DNA from: Promethearchaeota archaeon
Lineage (GTDB): Archaea; Asgardarchaeota; Lokiarchaeia; Sigyniarchaeales; SOKP01
NCBI GenBank assembly: GCA_048940765.1
Contig: JBHLOG010000002.1
Location: 20,254 to 84,253 of the forward strand
DNA length: 64,000 nucleotides
Reading direction: 5' to 3'
A program made the translations under genes and the position numbers. Under the pieces are notes generated by a model. It made no database searches. It worked only from the letters and a program-made list of their open reading frames with translations, and was not told the origin of the DNA. Positions 47,600 to 64,000 of the stretch are shown one piece after another (the stretch's first letter is position 1; the number at the start of each line of letters is the position of its first letter).

Positions 47600-49195
47600 T
47601 TAAGAAATAGCCGGAGGATATTGAGAATTAGCTAATAAAGCCCAAAATAACATCCTTAATTCTAATTTAAATCCCAGTTTATCTTGACGCCAATTGAATT
47701 CCCTATTAAGGCTTTTTGTATCAAAAAAAGGGATTTTATTAAATATGAAATTTACTAAATTACTACATATTTTAGATTCTTGCTCTTTTAAATTTAGTAA
47801 ATCAATGATTAGTAAGGCTCGTGCTGAATCTGAAATAAGGTCATTAACAGAACCATTTGATATTATTAATTTTTTTATTTCATGAATATAATTTGATTTA
47901 AATTGGTTAAAATTTGCTGCGCTTTCTAGCAGTTTTATTGATGTCAAATGGTTATAAATATCAAAAATTGGCTTAAATTCTTGTAAGTTTAAAATATTTA
48001 AATTATAAATGAGATTTTTAATCGAACCTTTATTTATACTAATTTTACGCATTTTTAACATTAATTTTAAACTTAATAATGCATATAAATTCATTTCTAA
48101 TTTTTCTGGAATAAATTGATCTAAATATGATAGGAGATACCTTTCAATTTCAAGTAGATCTATTATATTTGTTTTAATAAATAAATCTAATTCTGAAAAT
48201 ATTGAAAGACCATAGAAAATATTTTTTGGATCCGATATGTTATCTTTTGAAGAACTAAATACTTTTTCATTAATAAAATTCTTCACTATATCTAAAATCT
48301 CATTGTCAGTAAAAGGAAATTCTAGATCCAGCATTTTAATTATAGAAATAAAATAGAATAAATTCTCTAAGTCGAAATAATCTCTATTTACCACTTTTGA
48401 ATTTATCAAGCTAACTTTATCGATTTTAAAGTTATTAACAATCTCTGGACGTATTGCTTCAAAATTTCCGAGAGAATCAAGAAACGTTCCAGAAGATTCT
48501 TCTATAGTTGCTTCTTGCGCTTTTTGATAGGTTGTTTTATCGATTGATGGTATTAATAAATCTTTTTTAGGCGTCTTGAGGCTTTCTATAATATTTTCTT
48601 TCGCTTCTCTTAATTGCTTTAATATATCTGATTCTTGAATTTTTTTAGGTTTAATAGTTAAGTCTGATAGATTAATAAAATTAGTATAACTGTGTTGATT
48701 AAATAACCTTATTATTTCAGGAGATTTAAAATATTCATTTTTTATATTGTTAAGTTTTAAAGTAAAATTTGGAGGCGTTAAATCAAATAGATTTACATTC
48801 TCTAATTTTTTTATTTCAATATCAAGTAAATAGTTTATTATAATATCAAATAGTATTTTATATACATAATTTTGGAAAAAAAAATCAAAATATGATTTAT
48901 AATCAACGAAAACCATACTTTCTTTATCTAATCTTTCTAAAAAATTGTTTTCAATTTTATTTATGATCTCTATTGAAACACCAATTGTATTTAAACCGGT
49001 TTTAATTGCTTTTAAAATTTTTTTTAATGTAATTTTTATGTTTTTTTCATTCTCATCCTCAATTTTCTTATTCAAATCGACTTTTTTATAATTAATAAGA
49101 TCTGTTAGATAAGAATGACTTTTAAGATAATATTTTAAAATATCATCTTTCAGATTTTCAATTAAAACAGTTAAAATATCTGTAATTTCCTTCAT
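47600..49195 (-). CDS. Hypothetical protein (531 aa)
   Basis: Long ORF, helical-repeat-like, no motif recognised. Confidence 0.55.
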   Translation of the reverse strand: MKEITDILTVLIENLKDDILKYYLKSHSYLTDLINYKKVDLNKKIEDENEKNIKITLKKILKAIKTGLNTIGVSIEIINKIENNFLERLDKESMVFVDYKSYFDFFFQNYVYKILFDIIINYLLDIEIKKLENVNLFDLTPPNFTLKLNNIKNEYFKSPEIIRLFNQHSYTNFINLSDLTIKPKKIQESDILKQLREAKENIIESLKTPKKDLLIPSIDKTTYQKAQEATIEESSGTFLDSLGNFEAIRPEIVNNFKIDKVSLINSKVVNRDYFDLENLFYFISIIKMLDLEFPFTDNEILDIVKNFINEKVFSSSKDNISDPKNIFYGLSIFSELDLFIKTNIIDLLEIERYLLSYLDQFIPEKLEMNLYALLSLKLMLKMRKISINKGSIKNLIYNLNILNLQEFKPIFDIYNHLTSIKLLESAANFNQFKSNYIHEIKKLIISNGSVNDLISDSARALLIIDLLNLKEQESKICSNLVNFIFNKIPFFDTKSLNREFNWRQDKLGFKLELRMLFWALLANSQYPPAIS

Positions 49196-49524: not shown

Positions 49525-50271
49525 ATGAAATATTCTAGTTTTAATACTTTTGCAAAGGATTATCATTTAAAGCGTAAAAAACCGTGGCGCCCACTTGAAA
49601 TCTTCTTAAATCATTTGAGAAAGAAAGCTTATTCTTTTAATGGTCTAATTTTAGATTTAGGGTGTGCAAATGGTAGGAACTTTAAAATTCTGGGTGATTC
49701 GCCTAAAAAGTTGGTTGGTATTGATATCTCTCTTGAATTACTTAAAATAGCAAAAAATACTCTAAATGAATCTGAACAGTATTCTAAATCTGAAAGGAAT
49801 AATATTCAACTTATTTTAGGAAATATCACTAGCCTCCCTATTAGAGAAAATACATTTCATACTGTTTTTTTAATTGCTACTATACATCATATAATGAAAA
49901 AATCTGAAAGAAAAAAAACTATTCTTCAGATATATACACTCTTAAGAAAAAATGGAAACTTGATAGCAACTGTTTGGCGAAAATGGCAAAAAAAGCTAAG
50001 GAACTATTTTATTTTTGATTGGATTAGAAGATATTTTACTTTTAATTATAAGGAACAACAAAGTAAAATTGGTTTAGAAGAATTTGGAGATAAATTTGTC
50101 CCTTGGACACTTTCAAAAGGCGAAAAGACATTTAATCGCTTTTATCACTTTTTTTCTAAAAAAGAACTGAAAAAACTCTTTAAGATTTTTAAGATTATTG
50201 AATTTAAAATAACAGGGGGTCCTACTAAAAAAGATAATTTTTTTATTTTCGCTCGTAAATCTGAAATTTAA
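49525..50271 (+). CDS. Class I SAM-dependent methyltransferase (Trm9/ALKBH8-MT-like)
   Basis: ILDLGCANGRN (motif I), VGIDIS, FLIATIHHI...RKKTILQIYTLLRKNGNLIATVW. Confidence 0.7.
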   Translation: MKYSSFNTFAKDYHLKRKKPWRPLEIFLNHLRKKAYSFNGLILDLGCANGRNFKILGDSPKKLVGIDISLELLKIAKNTLNESEQYSKSERNNIQLILGNITSLPIRENTFHTVFLIATIHHIMKKSERKKTILQIYTLLRKNGNLIATVWRKWQKKLRNYFIFDWIRRYFTFNYKEQQSKIGLEEFGDKFVPWTLSKGEKTFNRFYHFFSKKELKKLFKIFKIIEFKITGGPTKKDNFFIFARKSEI

Positions 50272-50759
50272 TGACATAAAATTGAATTATAAGAATTCAG
50301 TATAAATGGTTTATAATTTTCATATAGTTCTCCAATAATAGAAGTATGAAAATTAAAAAGCCTTTCTGTGATATCACAATAAAATATACAATGGATTCCT
50401 TTTTCATGATAAAACCTTTTTCTAATCATCTTATTTCGATGCCCAACCCAGAAAGTTATTTCATGACTCATTGACCAATCTCTATTTTTTTCTGTTACAA
50501 CTAAACCAATTGCGTTATAAACATCTATGCTATTCTGCACTTCCTTATAATATAAAAGGTTCATTCGATCTTTTTTTTCCCAAGATATTTCCATTTTAGA
50601 TTCTGGACCCCAGATCTCATCATGTTCGTTCTTAGAATTTAAAATGATAGAACCTTTGTGTTCGTCTCCTTCATATTCTGCTTCAATATACCAAACTGGC
50701 ATTTTATTGATTGTAATTCCACATTCTGGTTTATTATATACGAAGTAATTATATTCCAT
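50268..50759 (-). CDS. Hypothetical protein (163 aa)
   Basis: ORF only; overlaps the methyltransferase stop by 4 nt (convergent). Confidence 0.45.
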   Translation of the reverse strand: MEYNYFVYNKPECGITINKMPVWYIEAEYEGDEHKGSIILNSKNEHDEIWGPESKMEISWEKKDRMNLLYYKEVQNSIDVYNAIGLVVTEKNRDWSMSHEITFWVGHRNKMIRKRFYHEKGIHCIFYCDITERLFNFHTSIIGELYENYKPFILNSYNSILCH

Positions 50760-50905: not shown

Positions 50906-51505
50906 TTATTTTAACAATTCCTTTCCTTCTTCAATCCATTTTTTCATTCGGTCTAATGATACTCCTTTAATTAAAGTTGAAAGTTCCTCAGGACTTTCTT
51001 TACATAGATCTTCAACAGTATTAACACCAAGCTCAATAAATTTTTTCGCTGTTGCTGCTCCTAATCCTGGTAATTCAGTTAAGGGAATTCCTTCAGCTTT
51101 AACTGGTATTTTCTCCAACTTAACAGGCTTTACTTTTTCTTTCTTTATAACTTTTGGTTTTGGTTTGGTTGGAGTTACCTTGGGTTTTTCTTTGACAACT
51201 TTTTTTGGTTTTCGTTTTACTCTTTCTTCTATTGGTTTAAATGGTGTTCTCTTCTTTTCTTTTTTTATATAGGGTTTCTTTTTTTTCTTTTCAATTTTCG
51301 GTATTTCTAAAGCCTTTAATTGCTTGATATTTTCAGGATGAGAAGATTTCCTAAAATAATCAATTTTAATGTCCATTCTTTTCAAGATTTCAATTGTTTT
51401 GCCAGCTTCTTCGATTTCCTTTAAAGAAAATCCATTACCTCGTCTTAAATAAGCGTTTTTTGCAGGACTCTTTACTATAGCTATTAAAGCAAGTTTTTTT
51501 TCCAT
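50906..51505 (-). CDS. Ribosomal protein L13e-like domain fused to a Lys-rich linker and a helix-hairpin-helix domain
   Basis: YLRRGNGFSLKEIEEAGKTIEILKRMDIKIDYFRKSSHPENIKQLKAL resembles L13e (R.G.GFSL.E...AG....A...GI.VD.RR). The C-terminus LTELPGLGAATAKKFIELGVNTVEDL is an HhH motif. Confidence 0.5.
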   Translation of the reverse strand: MEKKLALIAIVKSPAKNAYLRRGNGFSLKEIEEAGKTIEILKRMDIKIDYFRKSSHPENIKQLKALEIPKIEKKKKKPYIKKEKKRTPFKPIEERVKRKPKKVVKEKPKVTPTKPKPKVIKKEKVKPVKLEKIPVKAEGIPLTELPGLGAATAKKFIELGVNTVEDLCKESPEELSTLIKGVSLDRMKKWIEEGKELLK

Positions 51506-51626: not shown

Positions 51627-52262
51627 CTACATTTTAATTATTTCTAATTGTTCTAATTTTTTAAGAACATCATCTATTTCACTGCGTTTTTTATTTAAAA
51701 TCCTTGAAATTTTTAATGAAGAATTTTTCTCTGTACATTGCAAAGCGACCTGAAAATCAAAATCAGTAATCATTCCCATAGTAAGTATTTTATCTAATAC
51801 ATTTTTAGCAACTAATAATTTTGGGAAGACTTCAGCAATCCGACCCCCAATTGTAAGATTTTCTATATCCACACTTAATGTTTGAAATCTGCTTTTATCT
51901 GTTGTTGCTCTAAAATTTTTTAAATCAGACTGATGTTTCTTCCAAAAACGATTAGCTATTTTGTGAATTATATCCTCAATTTTATTAACATCATCATCTG
52001 CATCTGAAATTGAGCAGAAAAGGATTCTTGATAATGGGTGATAATGAATAAAAATAGTTGAATCTTCGGATTGTAAAACTCTATCCATCTCATTGACTCT
52101 CCTTCCTTTAGACATTGCTTGCTGAATAACATCAATTGTCGTATTTACGGCATTAAAAAATCCTGTTAAAATATCATCCTGAACCTTCTTTAATTCTCTA
52201 AATGTTGATTCAAAAAGCGATATACCATTATCCCCGTCGATTAAAAAAACTTTATAAATCAA
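51627..52262 (-). CDS. Roadblock/longin-like domain protein with a C-terminal winged helix
   Basis: MIYKVFLIDGDNGISLFESTF...LTGFFNAVNTTIDVI parallels the cytoplasmic tail of ORF 42921-46850. The C-terminus LKISRILNKKRSEIDDVLKKLEQLEIIK is HTH-like. Confidence 0.5.
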   Translation of the reverse strand: MIYKVFLIDGDNGISLFESTFRELKKVQDDILTGFFNAVNTTIDVIQQAMSKGRRVNEMDRVLQSEDSTIFIHYHPLSRILFCSISDADDDVNKIEDIIHKIANRFWKKHQSDLKNFRATTDKSRFQTLSVDIENLTIGGRIAEVFPKLLVAKNVLDKILTMGMITDFDFQVALQCTEKNSSLKISRILNKKRSEIDDVLKKLEQLEIIKM

Positions 52263-52416
52263 ATTTTAAGAAGTTAAGATATTTTTAATTATATTAAATA
52301 CATAAAAATTCACTCTTTTGAATTTACTTCCACACTTAAAAATCGAAATAATTAAAGTTAAAAATGAAAATTTTATGTCTATTATAAAATTAAATTTAAA
52401 ATTTATAGGATTAAAC

Positions 52417-53694
52417 ATGAAACCTAAGAGATCATCTATTTTTTTGTATTTACTCGTTTTGATTTCAATTAATTCAATGGCTATTACTATGCTAATCCCC
52501 TCTAATACTACTATTTCATATCCCTATTTATCTTCTTACAGTGATGGTGTTTCTAATTATAATATTACACAAAGCGTAAAATATCAAGTTGTAATTAACT
52601 TCTCCTTATCTCTTTCGAAGCCTTCATCTCAAATCTATAATTTTAAGGTAGCTAGATTAAATGATCGCCAATCAAATTCCTTGATTACCCCACATTGTCC
52701 CCCATATCAAGAAAGTGAGCTTTTATATAATTCTATTATAGGATGGGACAGTATTGAAACGGGATCTTTAGATAAATTCAATAATACTTATGATATATTT
52801 AATGCCACTCTTTCTGGTCCTGAAAACATAACATTAAATCAAAAATATAATATTACGCTAAATGAAATTAAATTTTCTGATATTCAAGATGAAGATATAG
52901 GCATTTACAATCCCGGTGATGATATACATACATTATTTAATGTAACTGAAGAATATTATGAATGTGACGATCCAACTTTAATTGCACTCTCAAATAGTAT
53001 TGTAGATCCTGCAGATAATCCCGTAGAAAAAGCTAGAGATATTTTTAATTGGATTGTAAATAATATTGATTATCAAGAGCAATATGAAGAAATTGGAGCC
53101 CTTGAAGCATATAATCGAAGGTATGGTGATTGTTCTGATTTTTCAGACTTAATGATAACACTCTTACGAATTCAAAGTATTCCTGCAAGGAAAGTAACAG
53201 GTTTTTTAATTACCGATAAACCATCTCATATTCCTAAACTAGGAAGTAAATATACTTTTGATATTAATTATAATGGTCTAACTCAAACGGTATCATTTAG
53301 CAATAAAATTTTAGGTCATGCATGGGTTGAATATTATGTACCCAATATAGGCTGGATTGCATGTGATCCAACTTGGGGAAAGGGATACTTTAATAAAATA
53401 GATTTTTTTAGATTTAATTTAAATATTGGAGCTTGGTTTTTCTTACCTGGAGCAACACCTCCCAAAGATTATATTTCTGAGTTTCCTATCAATCCATCTC
53501 CAGTATGTAGTGATCATACCGCTTATAATTGGCAATATTCAATTGAAATAACTGTTTTAGAAACAAATCTTATACCGTCAACTCCTTTTCCTATATTTGT
53601 AGTTATTTTTATAGTAATAGGATTAGCAGTAATTTTAATTGTTGTTATTCTTCTGGTTAGAAGAGGTGGTAAAAAGGAAGTGTTTTCTTATTAA
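52417..53694 (+). CDS. Membrane-anchored transglutaminase-like cysteine protease-fold protein
   Basis: Core triad context YGDCSDFSDLMITLLRIQSIPARKVTGF ... GHAWVEYYVP ... ACDPTWG. N-terminal signal anchor (start ATG 52417 preferred over TTG 52318) and a C-terminal TM. Confidence 0.8.
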   Translation: MKPKRSSIFLYLLVLISINSMAITMLIPSNTTISYPYLSSYSDGVSNYNITQSVKYQVVINFSLSLSKPSSQIYNFKVARLNDRQSNSLITPHCPPYQESELLYNSIIGWDSIETGSLDKFNNTYDIFNATLSGPENITLNQKYNITLNEIKFSDIQDEDIGIYNPGDDIHTLFNVTEEYYECDDPTLIALSNSIVDPADNPVEKARDIFNWIVNNIDYQEQYEEIGALEAYNRRYGDCSDFSDLMITLLRIQSIPARKVTGFLITDKPSHIPKLGSKYTFDINYNGLTQTVSFSNKILGHAWVEYYVPNIGWIACDPTWGKGYFNKIDFFRFNLNIGAWFFLPGATPPKDYISEFPINPSPVCSDHTAYNWQYSIEITVLETNLIPSTPFPIFVVIFIVIGLAVILIVVILLVRRGGKKEVFSY

Positions 53695-53720
53695 TATTAT
53701 TTTAATTTTTTTTCTTTATC

Positions 53721-55184
53721 TTAAATATAAGTATGAATCAAATCTACAAGATTTTTAGAAAAATTAGGTAAATTCTCTTCTATTTTTTCAATTTCTAAAC
53801 TTTTCTCTAAAAATAATAACAAGTATAAATTATATTTTTCAACTGTTATTTTCTTAAAGATAACTTTTTTTGATTCATCAGCTATTCCAGAAGAAACGAT
53901 AAAATCTTGTTCTAATAGTTTATATTCTTTAAAATTTTTATAAAGTGATTGAAAGTGAGGTGCGCTAATTTCAAATACTTTTCCAGAAATTTCATTCTTA
54001 GAGAAACTAGATAATATGATTCCATTTTCATTTAGCAACAAAATAGCTTCGGAATTTGTTTTTTTAGCAAATTTTTTTAATTGATTCCTAAATAATTCTC
54101 GATTAGGACTTAATTGAGAAAGACCAAAAGAATATGCAGAAATAAGGCTCCAATGATCAAAGATACTTGTTTGAAAGATTTTTATAAAAAATCTGTCAGA
54201 ATTCTTTTTAATCTCATCTGCAATTATTTCTAAATTTTTAAAAATTTCTTCATTTCCTTTTAAATCAGGATCAAACTTGTTTAAGCTTACGATAATCGGA
54301 GGAAATTCCTCTAATTCTATTAACGAAGTTAAAATCCTTCTAAGTAAATCAAGGGCATCATTTATCCTTTCTACATCTTGAATATCAATAAAGAAAAATA
54401 ATAAATCTATATTATACAAATATACTTTACTTTGTTCAAGAAATCGTTCTCGATATTGCTTTTGTCCGCCTAAATCCCAAATTGATATCAAAGAATTTTG
54501 TTCTTCAAAAATTTTCTCCTCTGATCTCTCAACTCCTTTAGTCGGTAAAGATTTAATGATTTCAGAATATTTTCTTCTTATTCCATGTAAAAAGCTCGTC
54601 TTACCTGCTTTATCGAGTCCAGTAAGAAGAATTTTAATTTGTCTTCTTGTAGAAAAAGGATCTTTTAATTCTTTAGTGAATTCAAATAATTCTTCTTTTA
54701 AGTTATCAATAATTTTCACTTTCTCATTTAGATCTTTAGAATTTTGGATTTCAATAGCTGTTCTATCAATTATTACTCTCAGATATTTCATATTTTGATA
54801 GAAAAAGACTTTATCATCTTCATCAATTAATACCGTAATAGTAGCAGCTAACGCCTTTCCACGAGCCCCAACATCAGGAATGAGAAAAAAATAAGTTAAT
54901 CCATTTAATTTTAAATCGGGGAAAGGTAATATTCCAAAATAATTAACTCCTTCTGTTCCTGTACCATCTTGATATGTTGCATCTCCCATTAATAAACTAA
55001 TTGTTTTCATAGCAATTAAAAGTCCAGCACTCTCATTTAAATCCTTAGGCCAAAAAACTTTAGGGCTTGGTCCGTTTTCATCAAAAATACTTAATACAAC
55101 GACTTTTATAATATCAGTTTTGAGTTCGTTTAATTCTTTTTCAATTGGGTTATCTTTTTCTGGATCAGATTTTAACTTTGGCAA
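53721..55184 (-). CDS. Three-domain small GTPase: longin/uDENN-like N-domain, Arf/Sar-like G domain, roadblock-like C-domain
   Basis: G1 is LLTGLDKAGKTS, G3 is WDLGGQ, G4 is NKFD. The N-domain is VVVLSIFDENGPSPKVFWP...GILPFPD...LTYFFLI. The C-domain is EAILLLNENGIILSSFS. Confidence 0.8.
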   Translation of the reverse strand: MPKLKSDPEKDNPIEKELNELKTDIIKVVVLSIFDENGPSPKVFWPKDLNESAGLLIAMKTISLLMGDATYQDGTGTEGVNYFGILPFPDLKLNGLTYFFLIPDVGARGKALAATITVLIDEDDKVFFYQNMKYLRVIIDRTAIEIQNSKDLNEKVKIIDNLKEELFEFTKELKDPFSTRRQIKILLTGLDKAGKTSFLHGIRRKYSEIIKSLPTKGVERSEEKIFEEQNSLISIWDLGGQKQYRERFLEQSKVYLYNIDLLFFFIDIQDVERINDALDLLRRILTSLIELEEFPPIIVSLNKFDPDLKGNEEIFKNLEIIADEIKKNSDRFFIKIFQTSIFDHWSLISAYSFGLSQLSPNRELFRNQLKKFAKKTNSEAILLLNENGIILSSFSKNEISGKVFEISAPHFQSLYKNFKEYKLLEQDFIVSSGIADESKKVIFKKITVEKYNLYLLLFLEKSLEIEKIEENLPNFSKNLVDLIHTYI

Positions 55185-55344
55185 ATAATCCCCATTAGTT
55201 TAATTAGGAAGCTTTTAATCTATTCAAATTTGATATGAATTTTAAATTTAAGATAGTATAAAATCTTAATATACTTTAATATTTTCAAAATAATTATTAT
55301 TATTAAATGCTTTTTTTACCAAAAAACTGATTGGTTTAATAAAT

Positions 55345-57150
55345 TTAAGAATAAAACTTTAAACTTGATACACTTGAAACCTTACAAATTTGACTTAAAA
55401 ATTCTTTAAGAGTAATATTATATGCTTTTAATTCATCAAAGGAAACATACTCTATTGCCCCATAATGAATATAACGATGAAATTTTCCTTGGATATCTAT
55501 TCTATTGGTAAGATCAATTTCAATATCGTCACGAAAATGAACAGAATTACTATAAATATAGTTTTTATCATTAAAGAGTGATGTAACTTCTTCAGGATAA
55601 TGTTTTAAGTCTAATTTAGTGAACCGTTGTATCGCATTTACGGAAACATTTTCAGTTATTATAAAATTTCTTTTACTTTTTTCACATAATTTAGAACAAA
55701 ATGTATTTATTTCACTCAAAACATTTTTACTTAATTTCACAGCTTCTGAATGCTCATGAAGTTCATAATCCGTCAAAAATTTTATTGCTTCATTTAATCC
55801 AACTAAACTAAGGGATAATGCTTGATTATCCAACTTAAATAAAGACTTGTCGTTGATTTTTCCACCACAAAATGGTAAATGATTCGTAGCTATCCTTTTT
55901 TTTATTATTTCATACTTTTTAACTAAAATCTGTGAACATAAATTTATTTTCGATTTTAATAATTCCAAAAAATTATCTTCATCTCTGCTAATATATGCAT
56001 ATCGAGGTAAGTTCAAACTGATATTTTGAAGAAGACCAAAATTAAGATTCTTTTTTTCTAAATTCTGCCTAAGATATTTGTTTTTATTTGTACTTGAGCA
56101 TAAATTTATAAAATATATTGATTTTATTTTCTGAATTTCATTCCAGAAATTCAAATATTTATTTTCAATTTCATTCATGAATGTATTATCTAATATTAAC
56201 TGAAGTTTGGGAATTAAAATAGAATCATTATTATATTTTTTCTTATAAATATTTATTAGAGCAATAAATAATTTTAAGCAATCATCTTGATAATCACCAT
56301 AAACTTTTTGATTTTTTATATTCGGAGCTATAGCAGGAACCTCTGAAAATGATTTGAAAATAGAATAGTAGGATGATAATAACGTTTGTTCTATTTTTTT
56401 TCCAATTAGAAGGGGTAATTGATTAATTTCATAAATAAATTTCTGGATCTCTTGGATTATCAAATCTTCAGATATATTTTGTACATACGGGGCTAAAAAT
56501 GTTGTAAGAAAATTAAAACCTTGAGGTCCATAAAACTCACTTTGTATCATCCCTAACCATTTAGAGAGATGATTTAAGGCAGTTATAAGATTCTTAGCAG
56601 GTTTTTGTTTGTAATATGAATCAAAATAATCTATAGGTGGAAATCCATTCTCTAAAATCAGTCGAGGATCCCAAAATTGGCTGAACGGTCTTAAATCAAA
56701 ATAATTTAATCCATTAATATGAATATCTCCAGCTAAATGAGCTTTAGATTCTTCATTGGTAAGAATTCTTAAATGAGCATATTCTTCAGATATTTGATCA
56801 GCTGCCCAATGATGGACTTTTTCGGGATTTATCTGTTCATTTAATTTATTACTCAAACCGCTTTCGAGTATTTCTTCGTAATCCATTAAAGGCATTCCAA
56901 TCCGAGTATATAATTTACGTTCATTTTCAAAATGCTGTTCAGAGAGTATTGAACATACTATTTCTCTTATATGGGGACCAGAAAGAAATTTAATACCAGA
57001 ACTAATTATTCGTCTTACTACTAATTCAGTAATATGTTTTGCATTACTTTCACTCATTCCTGTTTCCTTCAAGATGCTTTCATAAATCTTAGAAGGATCA
57101 AAATCAGCAATATTTCCTTCTGTTCTATATACTTTAGGTAATAAATCCAT
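55345..57150 (-). CDS. ATP-cone + class III ribonucleotide reductase (NrdD)-like protein lacking a recognisable glycyl-radical C-terminus
   Basis: N-terminal ATP-cone (VYRTEGNIADFDPSKIYESILKE...ELVVRRI). NrdD-like AHLAGDIHINGLNYFDLRPF and FYGPQGFNFLTTFLAPYV. No RVCGY-type motif or C-terminal Zn ribbon. Confidence 0.65.
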   Translation of the reverse strand: MDLLPKVYRTEGNIADFDPSKIYESILKETGMSESNAKHITELVVRRIISSGIKFLSGPHIREIVCSILSEQHFENERKLYTRIGMPLMDYEEILESGLSNKLNEQINPEKVHHWAADQISEEYAHLRILTNEESKAHLAGDIHINGLNYFDLRPFSQFWDPRLILENGFPPIDYFDSYYKQKPAKNLITALNHLSKWLGMIQSEFYGPQGFNFLTTFLAPYVQNISEDLIIQEIQKFIYEINQLPLLIGKKIEQTLLSSYYSIFKSFSEVPAIAPNIKNQKVYGDYQDDCLKLFIALINIYKKKYNNDSILIPKLQLILDNTFMNEIENKYLNFWNEIQKIKSIYFINLCSSTNKNKYLRQNLEKKNLNFGLLQNISLNLPRYAYISRDEDNFLELLKSKINLCSQILVKKYEIIKKRIATNHLPFCGGKINDKSLFKLDNQALSLSLVGLNEAIKFLTDYELHEHSEAVKLSKNVLSEINTFCSKLCEKSKRNFIITENVSVNAIQRFTKLDLKHYPEEVTSLFNDKNYIYSNSVHFRDDIEIDLTNRIDIQGKFHRYIHYGAIEYVSFDELKAYNITLKEFLSQICKVSSVSSLKFYS

Positions 57151-57444
57151 AATTATCGTGTAGTAGTATTAATACTTAAATTTGTAATATTCACACTTAA
57201 TAATAAAATCTGAGAGACTTAAAAAAAAAATTATTAATACATTAAATTCAATAATTTGTCCTTAAAGAGAAGAATTAAGAACTAGTTTTTATTTTCAAAA
57301 TCAAATTTTTATTTTGTCGTCTATTGTAATTGATCTTAATGAAATTTTACACATTCTAACATAATTCTTTAATTATATAAAATAATCTTTAGAATTCTTC
57401 TAGTCTCTTTGTTTTATTTTAATATCATTTATTTGTATAAAATT

Positions 57445-58239
57445 ATGGAAATACAAACTGAATCATCATTAAAACAATTTTTTAGTGAAATATATCATAT
57501 CCTAAGAGAAACCAACACAAATGTCATTGATATTTGGCTAGAAATCTCAGAAATCCATTTTTTAAAACAATTTAATAATTCTGAATTAAGGAATTTTATT
57601 GAAAATTTCAATTTCATTTCTCTTCAAAAAGGAAATTATCAATACTATATAATTATAAATAAGATCGTGTTTATTGTAGAAACTATTAACATATTACAAC
57701 TTGATATAAGACAAATATCCGAAATTTTGAATTATGATGGATTTGAAGCCCTTATCAAAGAAATTCTTTCAAAAAATAATTATATCACTATTAAAAATTT
57801 TAGATTCTCTGATAATTCAAATTTTAGATATAAAACATTTCAAAAAAGGTATGAAATTGATATTATTGGAATTTATTCTAAATATATATTACTTATTGAT
57901 GCAAAACAATGGAAAAACAAAAACTCCTTTAACTCGATTAATAAAGCAGCAGATTTGCAATATAATAGAGCAATTGCTTTAAAAAAAAATCCAGAAATTT
58001 TTTCGAAATTAATTCAAACATTATTGGGATCAAAGATTAAGTTATATAAACGACTTCCATTCATCTTAATCCCAATTATCGTTACTTTAGAAGATAATGA
58101 TATCAAAATAAATAGCAATCAAATTCCTCTTGTTTCAATTTATGAATTAAATTCTTTTTTACACGAATTGCATAATAATTTGAAATTCTTTAGAACTCTT
58201 CAAGTTAATAAAGTAGTTATCCAAAGAAGCATAATATGA
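57445..58239 (+). CDS. PD-(D/E)xK nuclease-fold protein (Mrr/NERD-like)
   Basis: GFEALIKEILSKNNY...YEIDIIG...ILLIDAKQW fits a D...(D/E)xK core. ATG 57445 is preferred over the upstream alternative start. Confidence 0.5.
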   Translation: MEIQTESSLKQFFSEIYHILRETNTNVIDIWLEISEIHFLKQFNNSELRNFIENFNFISLQKGNYQYYIIINKIVFIVETINILQLDIRQISEILNYDGFEALIKEILSKNNYITIKNFRFSDNSNFRYKTFQKRYEIDIIGIYSKYILLIDAKQWKNKNSFNSINKAADLQYNRAIALKKNPEIFSKLIQTLLGSKIKLYKRLPFILIPIIVTLEDNDIKINSNQIPLVSIYELNSFLHELHNNLKFFRTLQVNKVVIQRSII

Positions 58240-58264
58240 AAAATAATTTGAAGAATAATTATTT

Positions 58265-59284
58265 TTAAGACTTTTTATCCTCTCCTTCAAAATATTCTTT
58301 TAATTGCTTTTTTACTATATTAATAGCAAAAGAAATTATTCCACTCTTAAATTTGGGGTGGGAAAATAAAATTAAAATCATATCCTTAGTACGTGGATCT
58401 TCTTTACCTATAGGAGCAAGATCTAATACTCCCTCTGATCCACGAACAGAAATGGCTTTTAGGTGACCTGCTTCTAATCCTTCTATTATATCTCCTCCAA
58501 TCATTGAAAGGTTCATACCAATTGTTGCAAATAGAGAATTAGAAATCCTTCCTGATATTGCTGATGCCAATATGGTACCATCTGTCTTTATAATAGCTGA
58601 TGCTTCAATATTTAAGTCTAATGTAAGTAAACGCTTTAAAATTTCATTCATACTGGAAGGAGGAATTGCTTCTTTTGGTTCTTTTTTTTGTTCGGCTTTA
58701 ACTTTTGGAATTTCCAATTTCTTTACAGATATCTTTTTTGAAAGAAAACTAAGTACTTCTGTCATATCTTTTTCTAATCTTTCTTGTTTTGATCTTGAAA
58801 CATCACTTTTTTGAGCTTCTGGTGGAATGGATGTTAAAGGAATTTCTTGCTTTTTAGCTACTCCCTCAGATATCGAACTTTTAAGTTCACTTAATGCATC
58901 TTTAATAGCAACATTCGATCTAGGCGGCGGAGAGGGAAAAGCTCTAGATCCTTTATATGGTTGAGGAGTAATTTCTTGAAGAACTTCTAATTTTTTTTTT
59001 TCTTTTTCTTTTTGTCGATCATTAGAAGTTTCTAGATCGGTATCTTCAATCAAAGAATCGGGAATCTCTTGTAATTCAAGATCCATTTTTTCTTTTTGTT
59101 GCTTATCAGGAGATGGTTTAACTGGCTCTTCAATTGAACTTTTTTTTTTCTTCTTTTCTTTACCAATTTTTGAACTTCTTATTCGTGAAGTTTTAGAAGT
59201 TAACGGTAATAAAGCCCCACATTTCCTGCAAATATGAGTCGTGGCTTCATTATTAGTTGCACCACAATTACTGCATATTATCAT
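58265..59284 (-). CDS. Zn-ribbon + Lys/Glu-rich linker + Roadblock/LC7 (MglB-like) domain protein
   Basis: N-terminus CSNCGATNNEATTHICRKCGA. C-terminus LDLNIEASAIIKTDGTILASAISGRISNSLFATIGMNLSMIGGDIIEGLEAGHLKAISVRGSEGVLDLAPIG. Confidence 0.7.
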   Translation of the reverse strand: MIICSNCGATNNEATTHICRKCGALLPLTSKTSRIRSSKIGKEKKKKKSSIEEPVKPSPDKQQKEKMDLELQEIPDSLIEDTDLETSNDRQKEKEKKKLEVLQEITPQPYKGSRAFPSPPPRSNVAIKDALSELKSSISEGVAKKQEIPLTSIPPEAQKSDVSRSKQERLEKDMTEVLSFLSKKISVKKLEIPKVKAEQKKEPKEAIPPSSMNEILKRLLTLDLNIEASAIIKTDGTILASAISGRISNSLFATIGMNLSMIGGDIIEGLEAGHLKAISVRGSEGVLDLAPIGKEDPRTKDMILILFSHPKFKSGIISFAINIVKKQLKEYFEGEDKKS

Positions 59285-59471
59285 AATTTATTTTATATTT
59301 TTGAATCGTAAATCTTTCAACTAATAAATTTAATCGGATAATTTGATTTAAAGACAAATTTTTAGTTCTTTTTGTATACAATATAAATAATAATCTATTT
59401 TTATTAATGTTGGTACTAATAAAAGAAAGGTTTAAAATTTTTAAAACCCAATTAAATTTGCTCAAATTTGC

Positions 59472-60443
59472 TTATTTATAAATAATTTCTCTTAATAAAT
59501 TCGCAAAAGATTCAAGATCTTCCTTATGAAAAACTGGATCATCTTTAACAAGTATTAAATAGTATGGTGTTGCTTCTCTTTTTAACATTATTTGTTTAAA
59601 TATAAAATTTTTCCCGAATTTCTGAATAAGCATCTTATCCTCGTATTTTTCTTCTATTACGCCTGCATATTGCATGTGATCATGAAGTGTGAGAAAATAC
59701 GGACAGGAAGCCGTCAAAAGATGTTTGGTTTCATCATCTTTATAATAAGATCCAATTATTAATGAATTGTCATCAATTACAACAACACCTTCAGAATTTA
59801 CTTTTTTAGCAAACTCTATGATCGTTTTTTCTATCAATTCTGATTTTGGATAAAGACTTAAGAGAATTTCAGACATAGCTGCAATGAGCGAAGAAAAATC
59901 ATAAATGGATGTTTCATAATAATACAAATCTTTATAATCAGTAGCTCTTAATTTGTCTTTTAAATCTATTACAATAGCTTTCATTTCATTTTGAGCACTT
60001 CTTTTTAGAGCGGGATCATATTTATGGAGAAATACATATATTGGTGGTTTAATATCTAATTTTTTGAATTGTTCTATGACATCCTTGAAATAACTTATTG
60101 CCTCAGGAAGTCTCGGTTTGTTTTGAACATCAATAACATAAATTGCTACTTCTGTTCCCTCAAAATATTTACCGGGATTTTTTAGATAGGCTATTCGGTA
60201 AGCTAATTGCCCCCCTAAATCCCATTCTGAGATTTCTTTACCCAGAAAATCGAATATTCTTCTCTGAGCTCCTCTTGTGGGAGATAATATAGCAATTTTA
60301 GAAAATTCCCTTTGAAGTGATAAAATAATGCTTGTTTTACCTGCATCGTCGAGTCCTGTAAAGAGTAGCTTATTAGGAGTTACCTCTACTTCTGGTTCTT
60401 CTTTTTTTAAGTATTGAATAGACTGTTTGAGATCTTTTTCCAA
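59472..60443 (-). CDS. Small GTPase with a C-terminal roadblock-like domain (Rag/Gtr-like architecture)
   Basis: G1 is LFTGLDDAGKTS, G3 is WDLGGQ, G4 is HKYD. The C-terminal ~110 aa (VNSEGVVVIDDNSLIIGSYYKDD...YYLILVKDD) is roadblock-like. Confidence 0.8.
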   Translation of the reverse strand: MEKDLKQSIQYLKKEEPEVEVTPNKLLFTGLDDAGKTSIILSLQREFSKIAILSPTRGAQRRIFDFLGKEISEWDLGGQLAYRIAYLKNPGKYFEGTEVAIYVIDVQNKPRLPEAISYFKDVIEQFKKLDIKPPIYVFLHKYDPALKRSAQNEMKAIVIDLKDKLRATDYKDLYYYETSIYDFSSLIAAMSEILLSLYPKSELIEKTIIEFAKKVNSEGVVVIDDNSLIIGSYYKDDETKHLLTASCPYFLTLHDHMQYAGVIEEKYEDKMLIQKFGKNFIFKQIMLKREATPYYLILVKDDPVFHKEDLESFANLLREIIYK

Positions 60444-60638
60444 ATAAATTTCACCTAAAAATTGATAGAAGTAATTGATATATAAATATATTCTTATTAA
60501 GATAAAAAATTATATCATTCTTTATTTAGCTTTTGCATAACAAACAATTTTGTAAAGATGATTAGAATAAAGCATAAAATTTAAGATTGTTTATCTAAAA
60601 CCCAAAGGATTATTTACCTTTTTGAGATGACAGTGTAT

Positions 60639-61208
60639 TTAGAACTTGTTATTATAAGCCGATTCTTTCTTGTTTTTATTTTTTTTTAGTAGTTCCATTA
60701 TTTTTTCGATTGCTTCTTGTGGAGTTTTGACACCATAAATCTTATCATTTCTTCGATCATCGAGTTTTTGATTAGCAATTTTTGAGGACCAGCCATCAAC
60801 ATTTGTCAATGCAATGATTGGCTTTTCATATATCCAAGCAAAAGAAATCTCCGATAAGGTACCTGCCTTACCTGCTATAGCTAAGCACACATCACCCGCT
60901 AACACAACAACAATATTTCTAGCTTGAGAAAAAGGACATGGAATAACCAAGTCAATATATTTATTTGCAGCTGATTTTTCTACAAATGGAATTATTCCAA
61001 TGGTAAAACCTCCCTTTTCCTTTGCTCCTTTACATACAGCTTCCATAACACCCGAAAGTCCTCCACATGCTATAGCAAAATTATTTTTGGCTATCAATCT
61101 ACCAATTTCAATCGTCTTTTCTTTCGTTTCTTTATCAATCTCACTAGCGCCAATTACGGAAATAACTCCATTGTAAATTTTTTTAAAATCCAAGTCCATA
61201 TTAATCAT
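60639..61208 (-). CDS. TIGR00725/LOG-like Rossmann-fold protein
   Basis: ISVIGAS...ACGGLSGVMEAVCKGAKEKGGFTIGIIP...ARNIVVVLAGDVCLAIAGKAGTLSEI. Confidence 0.65.
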   Translation of the reverse strand: MINMDLDFKKIYNGVISVIGASEIDKETKEKTIEIGRLIAKNNFAIACGGLSGVMEAVCKGAKEKGGFTIGIIPFVEKSAANKYIDLVIPCPFSQARNIVVVLAGDVCLAIAGKAGTLSEISFAWIYEKPIIALTNVDGWSSKIANQKLDDRRNDKIYGVKTPQEAIEKIMELLKKNKNKKESAYNNKF

Positions 61209-61388
61209 CTCTAAAATCTATTCGATTCTAATAGTCTTATTAAATCAAATTTATAAAAAATTCCGAAATTTATTAAATTATAATTATTATTATTGTTTCT
61301 TAATAAAAAATACTTATAAGAAAAAAATAAAAAAAAACCACTAATATTAATCATATTTAATAAGATTGAATTTGAAGTGAACATCTAA

Positions 61389-62030
61389 ATGAATGAATCT
61401 CAGGATAATAAAGAATCAAATAATGATTCAGAACCAATTAAAGAAATAGAAGAAAGGACTGAAAGTGCTTTTAAAGCAAAATTGAAAGATAAACTGAGTA
61501 GTAGTAAAAAAAGTTTAGGTAAATTTGCTACAAAAGTAAAACAAAAAGTAGATGAAAGTAAAGAGAAAGCAAAACTCAAATTAGAAGATAGAAAAGAGAA
61601 AAAAGAACTAGAAAAGGAGGAAAAAGCGACTAAAAAACAGGCTGAGAGAGAAGCTAAAGAGAAAGCTGAAAAAGAAGCCAAAGAAAAGGCTGAAAGAGAA
61701 GCTAAAGAAAGAGAAATGAGAAAATTGGAAGAAAAAAAAGCAAGAGAAAGAGCTGAGAGAGAAGCTAAAGAGAAAGCTGAAAAAGAAGCTAAGGAAAAAG
61801 CTGAGAGAGAAGCTAAAGAGAAAGCTGAAAAAGAAGCTAAGGAAAAAGCTGAGAGAGAAGCTAGAGAAAGAGAAATAAAAGAAGCAGATAAGAAACTAGT
61901 CCAAGTACTTGCAGAGCAAGAAGCTATGGAAAATGAAATAAAAGCAAGAAGAATCATTTGTCCAATGTGCGGAAAATTGAATAGTGGCGGTCGAACAACT
62001 TGTTCAGCTTGTTATTCACCTCTTAATTAA
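61389..62030 (+). CDS. Lys/Glu-repeat (AEREAKEKAEKEAKEK) protein with a C-terminal Zn ribbon
   Basis: A charged single-helix-like repeat region is encoded by tandem DNA repeats. The C-terminus is CPMCGKLNSGGRTTCSACYSP. Confidence 0.65.
   Translation: MNESQDNKESNNDSEPIKEIEERTESAFKAKLKDKLSSSKKSLGKFATKVKQKVDESKEKAKLKLEDRKEKKELEKEEKATKKQAEREAKEKAEKEAKEKAEREAKEREMRKLEEKKARERAEREAKEKAEKEAKEKAEREAKEKAEKEAKEKAEREAREREIKEADKKLVQVLAEQEAMENEIKARRIICPMCGKLNSGGRTTCSACYSPLN
61641..61883 (+). repeat. Tandem/higher-order coding repeat (48-bp unit)
   Basis: Two identical adjacent 48-bp copies at 61752-61799 and 61800-61847, and a diverged copy at 61641-61688. Each block is followed by a related 36-bp unit (61689-61724; 61848-61883). 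Confidence 0.85.
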
Positions 62031-62098
62031 ATTAACGATTTAATTCAAGTTCCTATATTATATTTCATAAATTTATGGAATCTAATTTTAAATTTCTT

Positions 62099-63061
62099 TT
62101 AAAATCTAAGTACATCAAGGGAATTCTTCCCATCATTTATTTTTAAAAGATTTTTTTCTTTTATAATTATCCCTATAATTTGAGCATTTAATCCGTATTT
62201 AGTAAATATATCTAATACTTTTTTACAATTTTTTTCAGGGACTGTTAAAATATAAGATGTAGTCAAATACATTTTTATATAAGTATCTAAAGAATAATCT
62301 TTTTCAATTAATCGAGGAGGAATATTAATTTGATTAATGTTAACATCCGCTCCTACTTCAGAGAATTTGATTAATTGTAATATGGTCCCAAATATCCCTC
62401 CATTAGAGATATCTTTAGAAGAATTAGCTAACTGTAATTTAGCAATCTCATTTATGGATTTTCTTTTATTCAAAACTTCTTCTGAAGTCTTAAAAGTAAC
62501 AGTATCCCAATATAAATTACTTGCTTTTCCGACTTTTCCATCAGAATCTATAGCTAAAATTATATAATCATTAACTTGTGCATTTTTTGCAGAAATATAA
62601 TGTTCTCTTTCAATTTCTCCAATCATAGTGGAACTTAGCTCATAATAATCCCCTCTAGGATTTGTATGTCCTCTCACGATTGGTACATTAAACTTCCTAG
62701 ATCCTTCACATACACCATCTATGATTTGCTTTCCAATTTCCTCTTCTTTATACGATATAATTAAACTTGCTGCTAAAGGGAATCCACCACAGCAATAAAT
62801 GTCATCAACTCCAACTAATATTGCACTAAAACCAGCTCCAAAAGGAAAATTCTCTACAAAACTAGTTTTAATTCTATCTGTAGTAATCAGAATAAAGTTT
62901 TTTTCATTTATTATCGCTGCTGAATCTTCTCCCATATCTGAGAAGATTTTTTGACTTTTAAACGAATTCTTCTCTATGAATTCGATTATTGGACTAATAT
63001 CTTTTTTTTCAATAATATTTTGATTGCTAATAATAGTCTCAGCAATTTTTTTGAGAAACAT
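62099..63061 (-). CDS. PurM/ThiL/HypE-superfamily (AIR synthase-related) protein
   Basis: DMGEDSAAII...ILITTDRI...GVDDIYCCGGFPLA is an N-domain pattern. 320 aa. No N-terminal Cys/Sec loop of SelD was seen. Confidence 0.6.
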   Translation of the reverse strand: MFLKKIAETIISNQNIIEKKDISPIIEFIEKNSFKSQKIFSDMGEDSAAIINEKNFILITTDRIKTSFVENFPFGAGFSAILVGVDDIYCCGGFPLAASLIISYKEEEIGKQIIDGVCEGSRKFNVPIVRGHTNPRGDYYELSSTMIGEIEREHYISAKNAQVNDYIILAIDSDGKVGKASNLYWDTVTFKTSEEVLNKRKSINEIAKLQLANSSKDISNGGIFGTILQLIKFSEVGADVNINQINIPPRLIEKDYSLDTYIKMYLTTSYILTVPEKNCKKVLDIFTKYGLNAQIIGIIIKEKNLLKINDGKNSLDVLRF

Positions 63062-63146
63062 CTAATTTAAATATAAAGCTATTAATAATAAAATTTGCTT
63101 ACATTAATTTAAGAATTAAAAAATTAATCATATTTATTTTAAAATC

Positions 63147-64000
63147 ATGGAAGAATTTATTGAAAATTCAATTGTAAAAGGATATGTGTTAAGCATTTAT
63201 GGAGAAATGGGTCCCCAACCCATTTATATGTTCCCTAATTATGTTAGTGATAAAGAATTTAGTGAGATTAGTAAGGAACGAGAAGAAAGAAAACTTTTAA
63301 CTTTAACTTATAGAGATGTAACACAGATTTCTATCAAAAATTTGAGTTTATTTATTAGTGATAAGATAATCAGTGAAGAGAAAAATCTTGAAAAGATTCA
63401 ATATTTTGCAATATTACCATATCCTGATTTTAAGACAACTTCACTTACTTACTTTCATTTTGCTAGAACAAAATCATCAAATAATCCTATTCCAACAGCT
63501 TTTTCAATTTTAGTTGAGGAAAAAAGCCGAAGTTTTTTATATAATAATATAAATAGATTAAAACCGTTAATTATCGGCTTTTTTAATGAATTTGATAATT
63601 CAATAAAAGAAAGTTTTCCCCCATTTGAAAATATTGAACATTATTTTCATGACCTTTTATTAAAGCTTTTTGAAATAGAAAAAAGTCCTTCAACACCAAT
63701 CACTTCACATAGAAAATTAAAGATACTCTTCTCTGGTCTTGATGATTCGGGTAAAACAAGTTTCCTCCTAAGTGTTGATAAACAATATAGTAAATTGATA
63801 GGATTAAAACCAACAACTGGTGCAAGTATCACATCTATTGAAGCGTTAGGCGCTACAATATTTTTGTGGGATTTAGGTGGTCAACGAAAATTTCGGGAAA
63901 AATATATCAGTAAAGCAGAGATTTATTTATATGAAGCCGACTTAATGTTCTATTTTATTGATATTAAAAATAAAAATAGATTTGAAGAAAGTATAGAATA
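63147..64000 (+). CDS. Longin/uDENN-like N-domain + Arf-like GTPase, 3' end beyond the window (not in the ORF track)
   Basis: ATG 63147 opens a frame that runs to the window end. The N-domain is VKGYVLSIYGEMGPQPIYMFP...YFAILPYPDF...LTYFHF. G1 is ILFSGLDDSGKTS and G3 is WDLGGQ. It is a paralogue of 53721-55184. Confidence 0.75.
   Translation, partial: MEEFIENSIVKGYVLSIYGEMGPQPIYMFPNYVSDKEFSEISKEREERKLLTLTYRDVTQISIKNLSLFISDKIISEEKNLEKIQYFAILPYPDFKTTSLTYFHFARTKSSNNPIPTAFSILVEEKSRSFLYNNINRLKPLIIGFFNEFDNSIKESFPPFENIEHYFHDLLLKLFEIEKSPSTPITSHRKLKILFSGLDDSGKTSFLLSVDKQYSKLIGLKPTTGASITSIEALGATIFLWDLGGQRKFREKYISKAEIYLYEADLMFYFIDIKNKNRFEESIE

Follow-up and report, generated by a model that had tools for sequence, protein, structure and literature searches.

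Three Rag/Gtr-like GTPases share a conserved, non-operonic gene neighbourhood with partner-type proteins in a Lokiarchaeia-type archaeon

Rag GTPases, Ragulator and the longin complexes with GTPase-activating protein (GAP) function, FLCN-FNIP, GATOR1 and C9orf72-SMCR8, serve lysosomal nutrient signalling, and their origin has been traced to Asgard archaea. Rag-family GTPases fused to longin domains were described by Liu et al. (2020). In Prometheoarchaeum syntrophicum MK-D1, Tran et al. 2024 (PMC10933270) counted 26 roadblock/longin-fused GTPases and reported GTPase-roadblock and longin-GTPase-roadblock architectures; the GTPase genes of this genome generally do not lie beside roadblock/longin genes, and one pair of Rag-like GTPase genes is found in an operon. 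Because Asgard GTPases rarely adjoin their regulators, the field lacks candidate pairs. Here we analyse a window of 64,000 nt from a Lokiarchaeia-type (Asgard) archaeon (contig JBHLOG010000002.1 of assembly GCA_048940765.1, positions 20,254-84,253 of the forward strand; coordinates below are those of the window). It holds three paralogous Rag/Gtr-like GTPases, which we call K, G and O, together with a Zn-ribbon-roadblock protein, J, and a probable longin-winged-helix protein, E211.

A first-pass annotation, made from the letters of the window, had read five open reading frames (ORFs) as a dense cluster of small-GTPase, roadblock and longin-type signalling genes; all five are present as translated frames. 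K (59472-60443, minus strand, 323 aa) is predicted to consist of a G domain (~59874-60386) and a C-terminal roadblock domain (CRD, ~59475-59873), which is the Rag design. G (53721-55184, minus strand, 487 aa) is a three-domain GTPase, as had been proposed, with a probable longin domain that carries a GP motif (~54675-55127; GP at 55068-55073, Arg108 at 54861-54863), an Arf/Rag-like G domain (54135-54653) and a roadblock domain (53724-54134). O runs on the plus strand from 63147 to 64000 and its frame stays open past the window end; these first 284 codons cover a longin domain (63147-63686, GP at 63210-63215) and a G domain that starts at 63708 and is cut off. Since the orthologues of O are ~500 aa long and carry all three domains as in G, O is another protein of this three-domain type, cut short where the window stops, and its first description as a longin-like GTPase was correct for the visible part but incomplete, missing the roadblock domain. 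G and O thus share the longin-GTPase-roadblock design. Their N-terminal longin domains, of 170-180 aa, are homologous (hhalign 99.5%), and so are the C-terminal domains (hhalign 97.4% between K and G, 99.7% between O and G).

The nucleotide-binding motifs that had been noted are read directly in the sequence: G1 follows GLD[DK][AS]GKTS, as GLDDAGKTS in K, GLDKAGKTS in G and GLDDSGKTS in O, and G3 is WDLGGQ in all three. Each protein exceeds the Pfam gathering scores of both Gtr1_RagA (PF04670, 22 bits) and Arf (22.3 bits). Over their full length, K and G match Gtr1_RagA better than Arf, and the coverage extends past the G domain: 93.4 bits over profile positions 1-218 of 232 in K, against 57.6 bits for Arf, and 91.6 bits over positions 1-217 of 232 in G, against 71 bits. 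The truncated O piece gives 54.9 bits with Arf and 28.8 bits with Gtr1_RagA. Taken alone, the G domains score 70.9 and 58.5 bits (K), 69.7 and 67.9 bits (G) and 56.8 and 62.7 bits (O) with Gtr1_RagA and Arf, respectively.

Reference sequences of RagA, RagC, ARF1, SAR1A and MglA were checked against PDB chains and scored with orthologue-derived profiles. The G-domain profiles rank ARF1 (45-55 bits) over RagA (34-41 bits), SAR1A (22-26 bits) and MglA (about 0-8 bits), which bears out the proposal that these GTPases are not of a typical prokaryotic kind. The full-length profiles place RagA over ARF1, with 68 vs 44 bits for K and 65 vs 41 bits for O, and their alignments enter the C-terminal domain of RagA, to residues 225-251. 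The G domains score about equally as Arf and as Rag and not as MglA; it is the switch II insertion, the G5 motif, the HKYD of K and the C-terminal roadblock domain that make the architecture Rag/Gtr. The identity of K, G and O as Asgard Rag-like multidomain GTPases is secure.

Among PDB entries, K matches 8yl2 over its full length (E 9.6e-86, about 50% identity), in agreement with its annotation as a GTPase-roadblock fusion. Next come 8zla/9m28, then Arl3, Gtr1 and RagA at about 1e-12; the alignments to Gtr1 and RagA run beyond the G domain into the C-terminal domain. The closest known systems, the MK-D1 Rag-like GTPases together with PDB 8yl2 and 8zla/9m28 ('GTP-binding protein'), have the same architectures as K, G and O, and a roadblock architecture was modelled by Tran et al. 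2024 (PMC10933270) for homologues. The entry 8yl2 represents a different lineage, no sampled K being more than about 51% identical to it; a literature search for this PDB code found no paper.

The multiple alignment (MAFFT, with RagA and RagC) divides the three proteins into Arf-like and Rag-like parts. The P-loop and switch I are Arf-like, whereas the switch II insertion, the TSI[YF]D motif at G5, the L-x-P...LE...F linker and the whole C-terminal domain are Rag-like. K has all the Rag-type motifs, namely the switch II insertion, HKYD at G4 and TSIYD at G5. G and O have the switch II insertion and TS[IL]F, but NKFD (G) or SKGD (O) at G4. The earlier assignment as Arf/Sar-like is only half right. 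It fits the P-loop and switch I, but SAR1 scores low, none of the three has an Arf-type N-terminal amphipathic helix, and the switch II insertion, G5, the G4 motif of K, linker and C-terminal domain follow Rag.

As in these proteins, eukaryotic Rag/Gtr GTPases, which work with Ragulator or EGO, have a G domain followed by a C-terminal roadblock domain, and they share the switch II insertion, HKxD (with K), TSI[WY]D at G5 and the L-x-P...LE...F linker. They differ in the P-loop, GKSGSGKTS in RagA instead of the Arf-like GLDxxGKTS with PTxG in switch I seen here, and in HKxD at G4, replaced by NKFD in G and SKGD in O. The N-terminal longin domain of G and O is found in no eukaryotic Rag. With the Asgard ArfRs (Vargova et al., bioRxiv 10.1101/2024.02.28.582541), which are built of a single domain, have an amphipathic helix at the N-terminus and possess an interswitch toggle, the three proteins have in common the Arf-like P-loop, switch I and WDxGGQ. 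Unlike ArfRs, K starts with a charged stretch, MEKDLKQSIQYLKKEEPEVEV, without Gly2, G and O carry a longin domain in this place, and all three have a C-terminal roadblock domain.

FLCN, NPRL2 and SMCR8, all GAP longins, are marked by a 'GP motif' combined with an arginine finger, as is an Asgard longin class (PMC12290439), and the same work asks which Asgard GTPases partner these GP-motif longins. The probable longin domains of G and O carry the GP motif of FLCN/SMCR8-type GAP longins. G-P-x-P is invariant in their alignment, in the loop between the first two strands, and G38-P39 is found in every orthologue (30/30 for G and 38/38 for O). G has in addition an A-R-G loop whose Arg108 is invariant in 30/30 orthologues; in the equivalent loop of O, no Arg is conserved among 38 orthologues.

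An exhaustive search of 1.84 billion representatives yielded 110 members of this longin-domain family. Across it, the two GP residues are kept in 91/93 and 89/93 members and the Arg in 75/97 (77%), the latter being present in 70/80 G-like longin domains and only 5/17 O-like ones. Of the full-size members, about 84% are GTPase fusions: 19 are longin-GTPase-roadblock proteins, 27 are longin-GTPase proteins, and several more have a P-loop. That the GP/Arg longin is mostly fused in cis to Rag/Arf-like GTPases bears on the partner question of PMC12290439.

FLCN-FNIP, GATOR1 (NPRL2-NPRL3) and C9orf72-SMCR8 are comparable to G and O in having the GP motif in the b1-b2 loop and a conserved Arg in a later loop, and in the occurrence of Arg-bearing (G) and Arg-less (O) forms, reminiscent of catalytic and non-catalytic subunits. 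The sub-threshold matches of the G longin sequences to Pfam Folliculin are consistent with this likeness. The difference is that here one polypeptide joins the longin domain, in cis, to the GTPase presumed to be its client, without a DENN or NPRL2-C domain.

J (58265-59284, minus strand, 339 aa) lies directly downstream of K. It starts with a Zn-ribbon (59204-59284), continues with a low-complexity K/E-rich linker (58670-59203) and ends with a roadblock domain (58268-58669). The four Cys of the CxxC-x11-CxxC Zn-ribbon are invariant in 39/39 orthologues, and conservation is uneven along the chain, with 74% identity in the Zn-ribbon, 41% in the linker and 74% in the roadblock domain. E211 (51627-52262, minus strand, 211 aa) comprises an N-terminal domain (~51903-52262) and a C-terminal winged-helix-like domain (~51630-51785). 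When the J C-terminus and E211 were compared at profile level with the roadblock/longin domains of the three GTPases, no similarity emerged (hhalign prob < 20), and their folds were therefore examined by structure prediction.

The AlphaFold2 (AF2) model of the J C-terminal domain has a predicted local distance difference test score (pLDDT) of 80.6, a predicted template modelling score (pTM) of 0.76 and the topology a-b-b-a-b-b-b-a. Its top Foldseek matches are MK-D1 Roadblock3, a Thor roadblock, MglB and LAMTOR2/3 (prob 1.0, E about 5e-7), with prob 1.0 to 9jue, 7f8m, 6hjm and 5y3a and an E of about 1e-6 for MglB. Homologues of J are named Roadblock/LC7/MglB by JGI, and the J profile meets 7f8m in the PDB at E 0.003. 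The top PDB matches of that profile, designed 'Cake' repeat proteins, were discarded as spurious, since they cover a 16-residue stretch only. In J, a flexible linker connects the Zn-ribbon with a domain that the model places in the Roadblock/LC7 superfamily, in keeping with its first description as a Zn-ribbon-roadblock protein.

For E211, first described as a roadblock/longin-like protein with a winged helix-turn-helix (HTH) domain, both parts of that description are probable only. Its AF2 model reaches a pLDDT of 64.8, with the order b-b-a-b-b-b-a and then helices, of which the C-terminal three-helix unit stands at 80-93. The top Foldseek matches are all longin/roadblock folds (Sec22b, VAMP7, LAMTOR, SRX), only at E about 7e-3, and 25 of the 28 orthologues match the TrmB winged-helix model below threshold. 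No Pfam or NCBIfam family matches E211 above threshold, and its profile finds only noise in the PDB. E211 is probably a longin-like domain joined to a winged helix, on weaker evidence than J. The homologues of K and E211 come exclusively from metagenome-assembled genomes (MAGs) of Promethearchaeota (Lokiarchaeia-type Asgard), as the Asgard-like assignment of the window had anticipated; E211 is 100% identical to one protein of assembly GCA_048939795.1.

J, as a separate roadblock protein, resembles the Ragulator subunits LAMTOR2/3 in fold, and no LAMTOR1-like scaffold was identified here. These archaea are not known to have a TOR kinase or a lysosome.

We consider it reasonably probable that the locus is a conserved, non-operonic Asgard neighbourhood in which three Rag/Gtr-like GTPases and the partner-type proteins J and E211 would take part in a switch mechanism. 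By analogy with Rag/Gtr, K, G and O would be switches governed by their nucleotide state and would dimerise via the roadblock domains. In G, the GP-longin with its loop Arg could be a built-in GAP-type regulator of its own or a partner G domain, as the analogy with FLCN, NPRL2 and SMCR8 suggests, and the Arg-less longin of O would be its non-catalytic counterpart. The J roadblock may dock on the roadblock or G domain of K, as a scaffold or regulator in the manner of Ragulator or MglB. E211, finally, might couple the switch to DNA binding as a possible output.

A more ambitious version of this mechanism is decidedly unlikely, in our estimate. In it, G and O would be a catalytic/non-catalytic pair that heterodimerises via both roadblock and longin domains, a single-polypeptide precursor of the Rag heterodimer plus a FLCN-FNIP/GATOR1-type longin GAP; K-J would be Rag-Ragulator-like, and E211 a longin-winged-HTH transcriptional output. 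If true, this would be a compact pre-eukaryotic nutrient- or state-sensing switch, and eukaryotes would have come to encode its components as individual proteins later.

A scan of one genome per species returned 48 loci; because exact K peptide patterns were used as the query, it sampled a single clade, with K at least 60% identical. About 45 species-level genomes keep the gene order. In nearly all loci of sufficient length it reads O-N-(M)-L-K-J-I-H-G-F-E211-D-C-B-A, even where K identity drops to 60-66%; an independent ENA assembly has the same gene order. The co-localisation seen in one sequence is thus found in relatives. Every genome sampled from the clade has J immediately after K, and E211 directly follows G, at 110-336 bp, where the transglutaminase (TGase) gene is absent.

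Outside this clade, a metagenome scan with 8yl2 gave only 7 loci, mostly short. The contigs of the 8yl2 lineage, 92-94% identical to 8yl2 and about 50% diverged from K, have the orders N-L-K (L059) and K-I(-)-G (L053-L055), without J and without NrdD; K is about 1 kb from G. From this gene order, the N-L-K and K-G proximities are old and the K-J adjacency is clade-specific. N-L-K is the most persistent part of the neighbourhood, being kept in the 8yl2 lineage as well as in the rearranged complete genome CP070831. In the 8yl2 lineage, I is divergent from G, with an 86-bp spacer.

Several observations weigh against the proposed switch neighbourhood. Two concern the longin domain of G, the fold of which rests on sub-threshold matches: Pfam Folliculin is found below threshold in 5/5 G and 0/6 O longin sequences (best E 9e-4, 16 bits vs a gathering score of 23.3), and the 'Longin domain' of PDB 8yqg matches at E 0.5. 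The hhalign alignment of the G longin profile to FLCN, whose sequence was checked beforehand, puts Arg108 on R164, but this register is statistically not significant (score 18.1 vs shuffles 12.5 +/- 2.3, max 22.2); as the score lies within the range of shuffled controls, the equivalence is a lead and not a result. The others concern gene order. In the flank control, Macro, CxxCxxCC, TBP, h297 (a 297-aa protein) and MtrH were equally collinear, as were HhH/L13e-like, a 163-aa protein and a methyltransferase on the opposite flank. The co-localisation of the five genes is no better conserved than that of housekeeping neighbours; since unrelated flanking genes are equally collinear, synteny alone says little about a module, and it was dropped as evidence for one. 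CP070831 (L001) retains only N-L-K-J, with G, O and E211 away from K, and J does not adjoin K in the 8yl2 lineage. Spacers of ~190 bp with a TATA-like block also argue against co-transcription.

A rival reading is passive synteny, in which K, G, O, J and E211 are functionally independent paralogues drawn from the large Asgard GTPase/roadblock/longin repertoire, on a part of the chromosome that was not rearranged in the clade. We regard this as possible, if somewhat unlikely. Besides the equal collinearity of both flanks, it accounts for the unrelated genes interspersed on both strands, for the separate promoter-like spacers and for the sole rearranged genome, which splits the set; it also agrees with Tran et al. 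and Liu et al., who find Asgard GTPase/eukaryotic signature protein genes generally outside operons and conserved neighbourhoods. The density of the GTPases, the persistence of K-G and the orientation of the small partner genes do not fit it as well, however.

With 26 fused GTPases placed uniformly on a genome of about 4.43 Mb (the MK-D1 figures), chance would give each genome about 0.065 triplets within 10.9 kb, so that three GTPases of the same class in 10.9 kb are ~15-fold rarer than one per genome. This is above chance, not overwhelmingly so. K and G have stayed close at ~50% divergence of the proteins, although the genes between them, J and NrdD, are gained and lost, and a small roadblock/longin gene lies co-directionally downstream of a GTPase, both for K-J and, when TGase is absent, for G-E211.

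The neighbourhood is conserved and denser than chance, and it is not an operon, with five unrelated genes on both strands interspersed among the five. The K-J spacer (59285-59471) has a median length of 192 bp and holds a conserved AT-rich TATA-like block, which suggests a separate promoter for J. The block, conserved in 80% or more of the sequences, reads TTT..TT.C.AA.ATTAATAAAATT..ATTTTTA....TA...TATA....AAAA, about 60-100 nt upstream of the J start, and is probably the K terminator plus the B recognition element (BRE)/TATA promoter of J. A 65-aa ORF listed at 59268-59465 is likely spurious. The five genes are probably transcribed separately, and their proximity probably reflects a long-standing gene order of the clade more than demonstrated co-regulation. 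What remains of the coordinated regulatory module proposed by the first-pass annotation is the conserved, denser-than-chance neighbourhood; the absence of an operon, the equally syntenic flanks and the restriction to N-L-K-J in CP070831 count against the rest.

It is improbable that the cluster is a relic of local duplication, where G, O and K would be together through tandem duplication and their proximity would speak of ancestry, not function. The common domain architecture with homology in every domain would fit, as would the tandem K duplicates seen in L043, L046 and L056. Against this, the N-domains of G and O are only ~30% identical, and the copies are separated by unrelated genes, with O on the opposite strand. 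The exhaustive search also found many representatives nearer to G (44-65% identity) than O is, and for this reason any duplication must be ancient.

The remaining explanation, an MglA/MglB-type polarity module with K as an MglA-like switch and J as an MglB-like GAP, is highly improbable: J matches MglB structurally and directly follows K throughout the sampled clade, but the K G-domain profile gives MglA -0.2 bits vs 45 for ARF1 and 41 for RagA, no MglA entry is found among the 60 best PDB matches of K, K has a roadblock domain of its own, unlike MglA, and the 8yl2 lineage has no J beside K. An MglA-type assignment was rejected for all three G domains (-0.2 to 8 bits with three G-domain profiles). 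The arrangement of a small GTPase gene beside a roadblock gene is nonetheless shared with MglA-MglB of Myxococcus and Thermus and with the Streptomyces conservons (CvnA-D). Conservons have an extra small conserved protein, while E211 here has a DNA-binding-like domain; CvnC of the conservons is of HTH nature. In contrast to both systems, the G domains here are not MglA-like, there is no histidine kinase, and the GTPases carry their own roadblock.

K, G and O with their partner-type neighbours are members of an already described Asgard class (Liu 2020, Tran 2024, PDB 8yl2), and since they are ordinary members of that repertoire, the cluster itself is no discovery. Modestly new are the statistics of the GP-longin cis-fusion, the presence of an Arg-plus and an Arg-minus form in a single neighbourhood, and the degree to which K, G and E211 are conserved. 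For experimenters, the locus offers K/J, G/O and G/E211 as candidate pairs. Median identity is 80% for K (45 orthologues), 79% for G and 79% for E211, compared with 58% for NrdD and 56% for TGase; no other gene of the block evolves as slowly as these three, which are under unusually strong purifying selection.

The genes interspersed among the five, on both strands, encode a membrane transglutaminase-like protein, NrdD, a NERD-like protein, a SLOG/TIGR00725 protein, a K/E-rich Zn-ribbon protein and an AIR-synthase-like protein. L (60639-61208, minus strand), co-directional with K and upstream of it, belongs to the SLOG/TIGR00725 family (Pfam LDcluster4 E 6e-41; NCBIfam TIGR00725 130 bits, above cut-off). 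N (62099-63061, minus strand), divergent from O, is AIR-synthase-like (methanogenesis-marker-2 / sll0787-like), with Pfam AIRS and AIRS_C domains; it scores 230 bits with NCBIfam TIGR03267, under the cut-off of 365. Although conserved neighbours, L and N show no evidence of functional linkage to the GTPases.

I (57409-58239, plus strand, 276 aa) is NERD-like (Pfam NERD 23.3 bits); it is always on the opposite strand between K/J and G and is positionally as conserved as the GTPases. The anaerobic ribonucleotide reductase NrdD, with an ATP-cone, is encoded at 55345-57150 on the minus strand. It is absent or replaced in L007, L010, L012, L020, L040 and L041, where a short similar piece on the opposite strand is left and the flanking I and G stay in place.

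The K/E-rich repeat protein with a C-terminal Zn-ribbon (61389-62030, plus strand; EREAKEKAEKEAKEKA...) occurs between N and L in some genomes only. Its layout mirrors that of J (Zn-ribbon, K/E-rich linker, roadblock). An ORF of 185 aa called on the other strand (61400-61957) is an artefact that arises from reading the K/E repeat in antisense.

The remainder of the window consists of ordinary archaeal metabolism genes. Profile hidden Markov models (HMMs) built from each domain found no further copies in the window between 1 and 51 kb, Rfam and tRNA scans of the window were empty, and the gene thought to encode leucine-rich repeats (LRR) was unconfirmed by a Pfam scan at E <= 1e-3. At the same limit, the proteins at 42921-46850 (plus strand, 1309 aa) and 47600-49195 (minus strand, 531 aa) have no Pfam match. 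The 163-aa Lokiarchaeial protein (50268-50759, minus strand), which adjoins the L13e-like/HhH protein (50906-51505), has no Pfam or NCBIfam match and a median identity of 75% in 24 genomes.

The MAG labels of the NCBI records L004-L051 vary between Promethearchaeota, Hermod-, Hod-, Thor- and Odinarchaeota despite a near-identical gene order and K proteins that are 76-88% identical; these phylum-level submitter labels are unreliable. The tandem K-type duplicates (L043 8841-10945, L046 857-2809 and L056 8652-10915) may be the 'pair of Rag-like GTPase genes in an operon' of Tran et al. in MK-D1. A subset of genomes (L002, L021, L028, L030, L031, L034, L036, L043 and L052) bears inserts, an ACT-domain protein and homoserine dehydrogenase between N and L and threonine synthase between L and K. 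Amino-acid biosynthesis genes beside a Rag-like GTPase may be suggestive, given the role of eukaryotic Rag in amino-acid signalling, or may be a coincidence.

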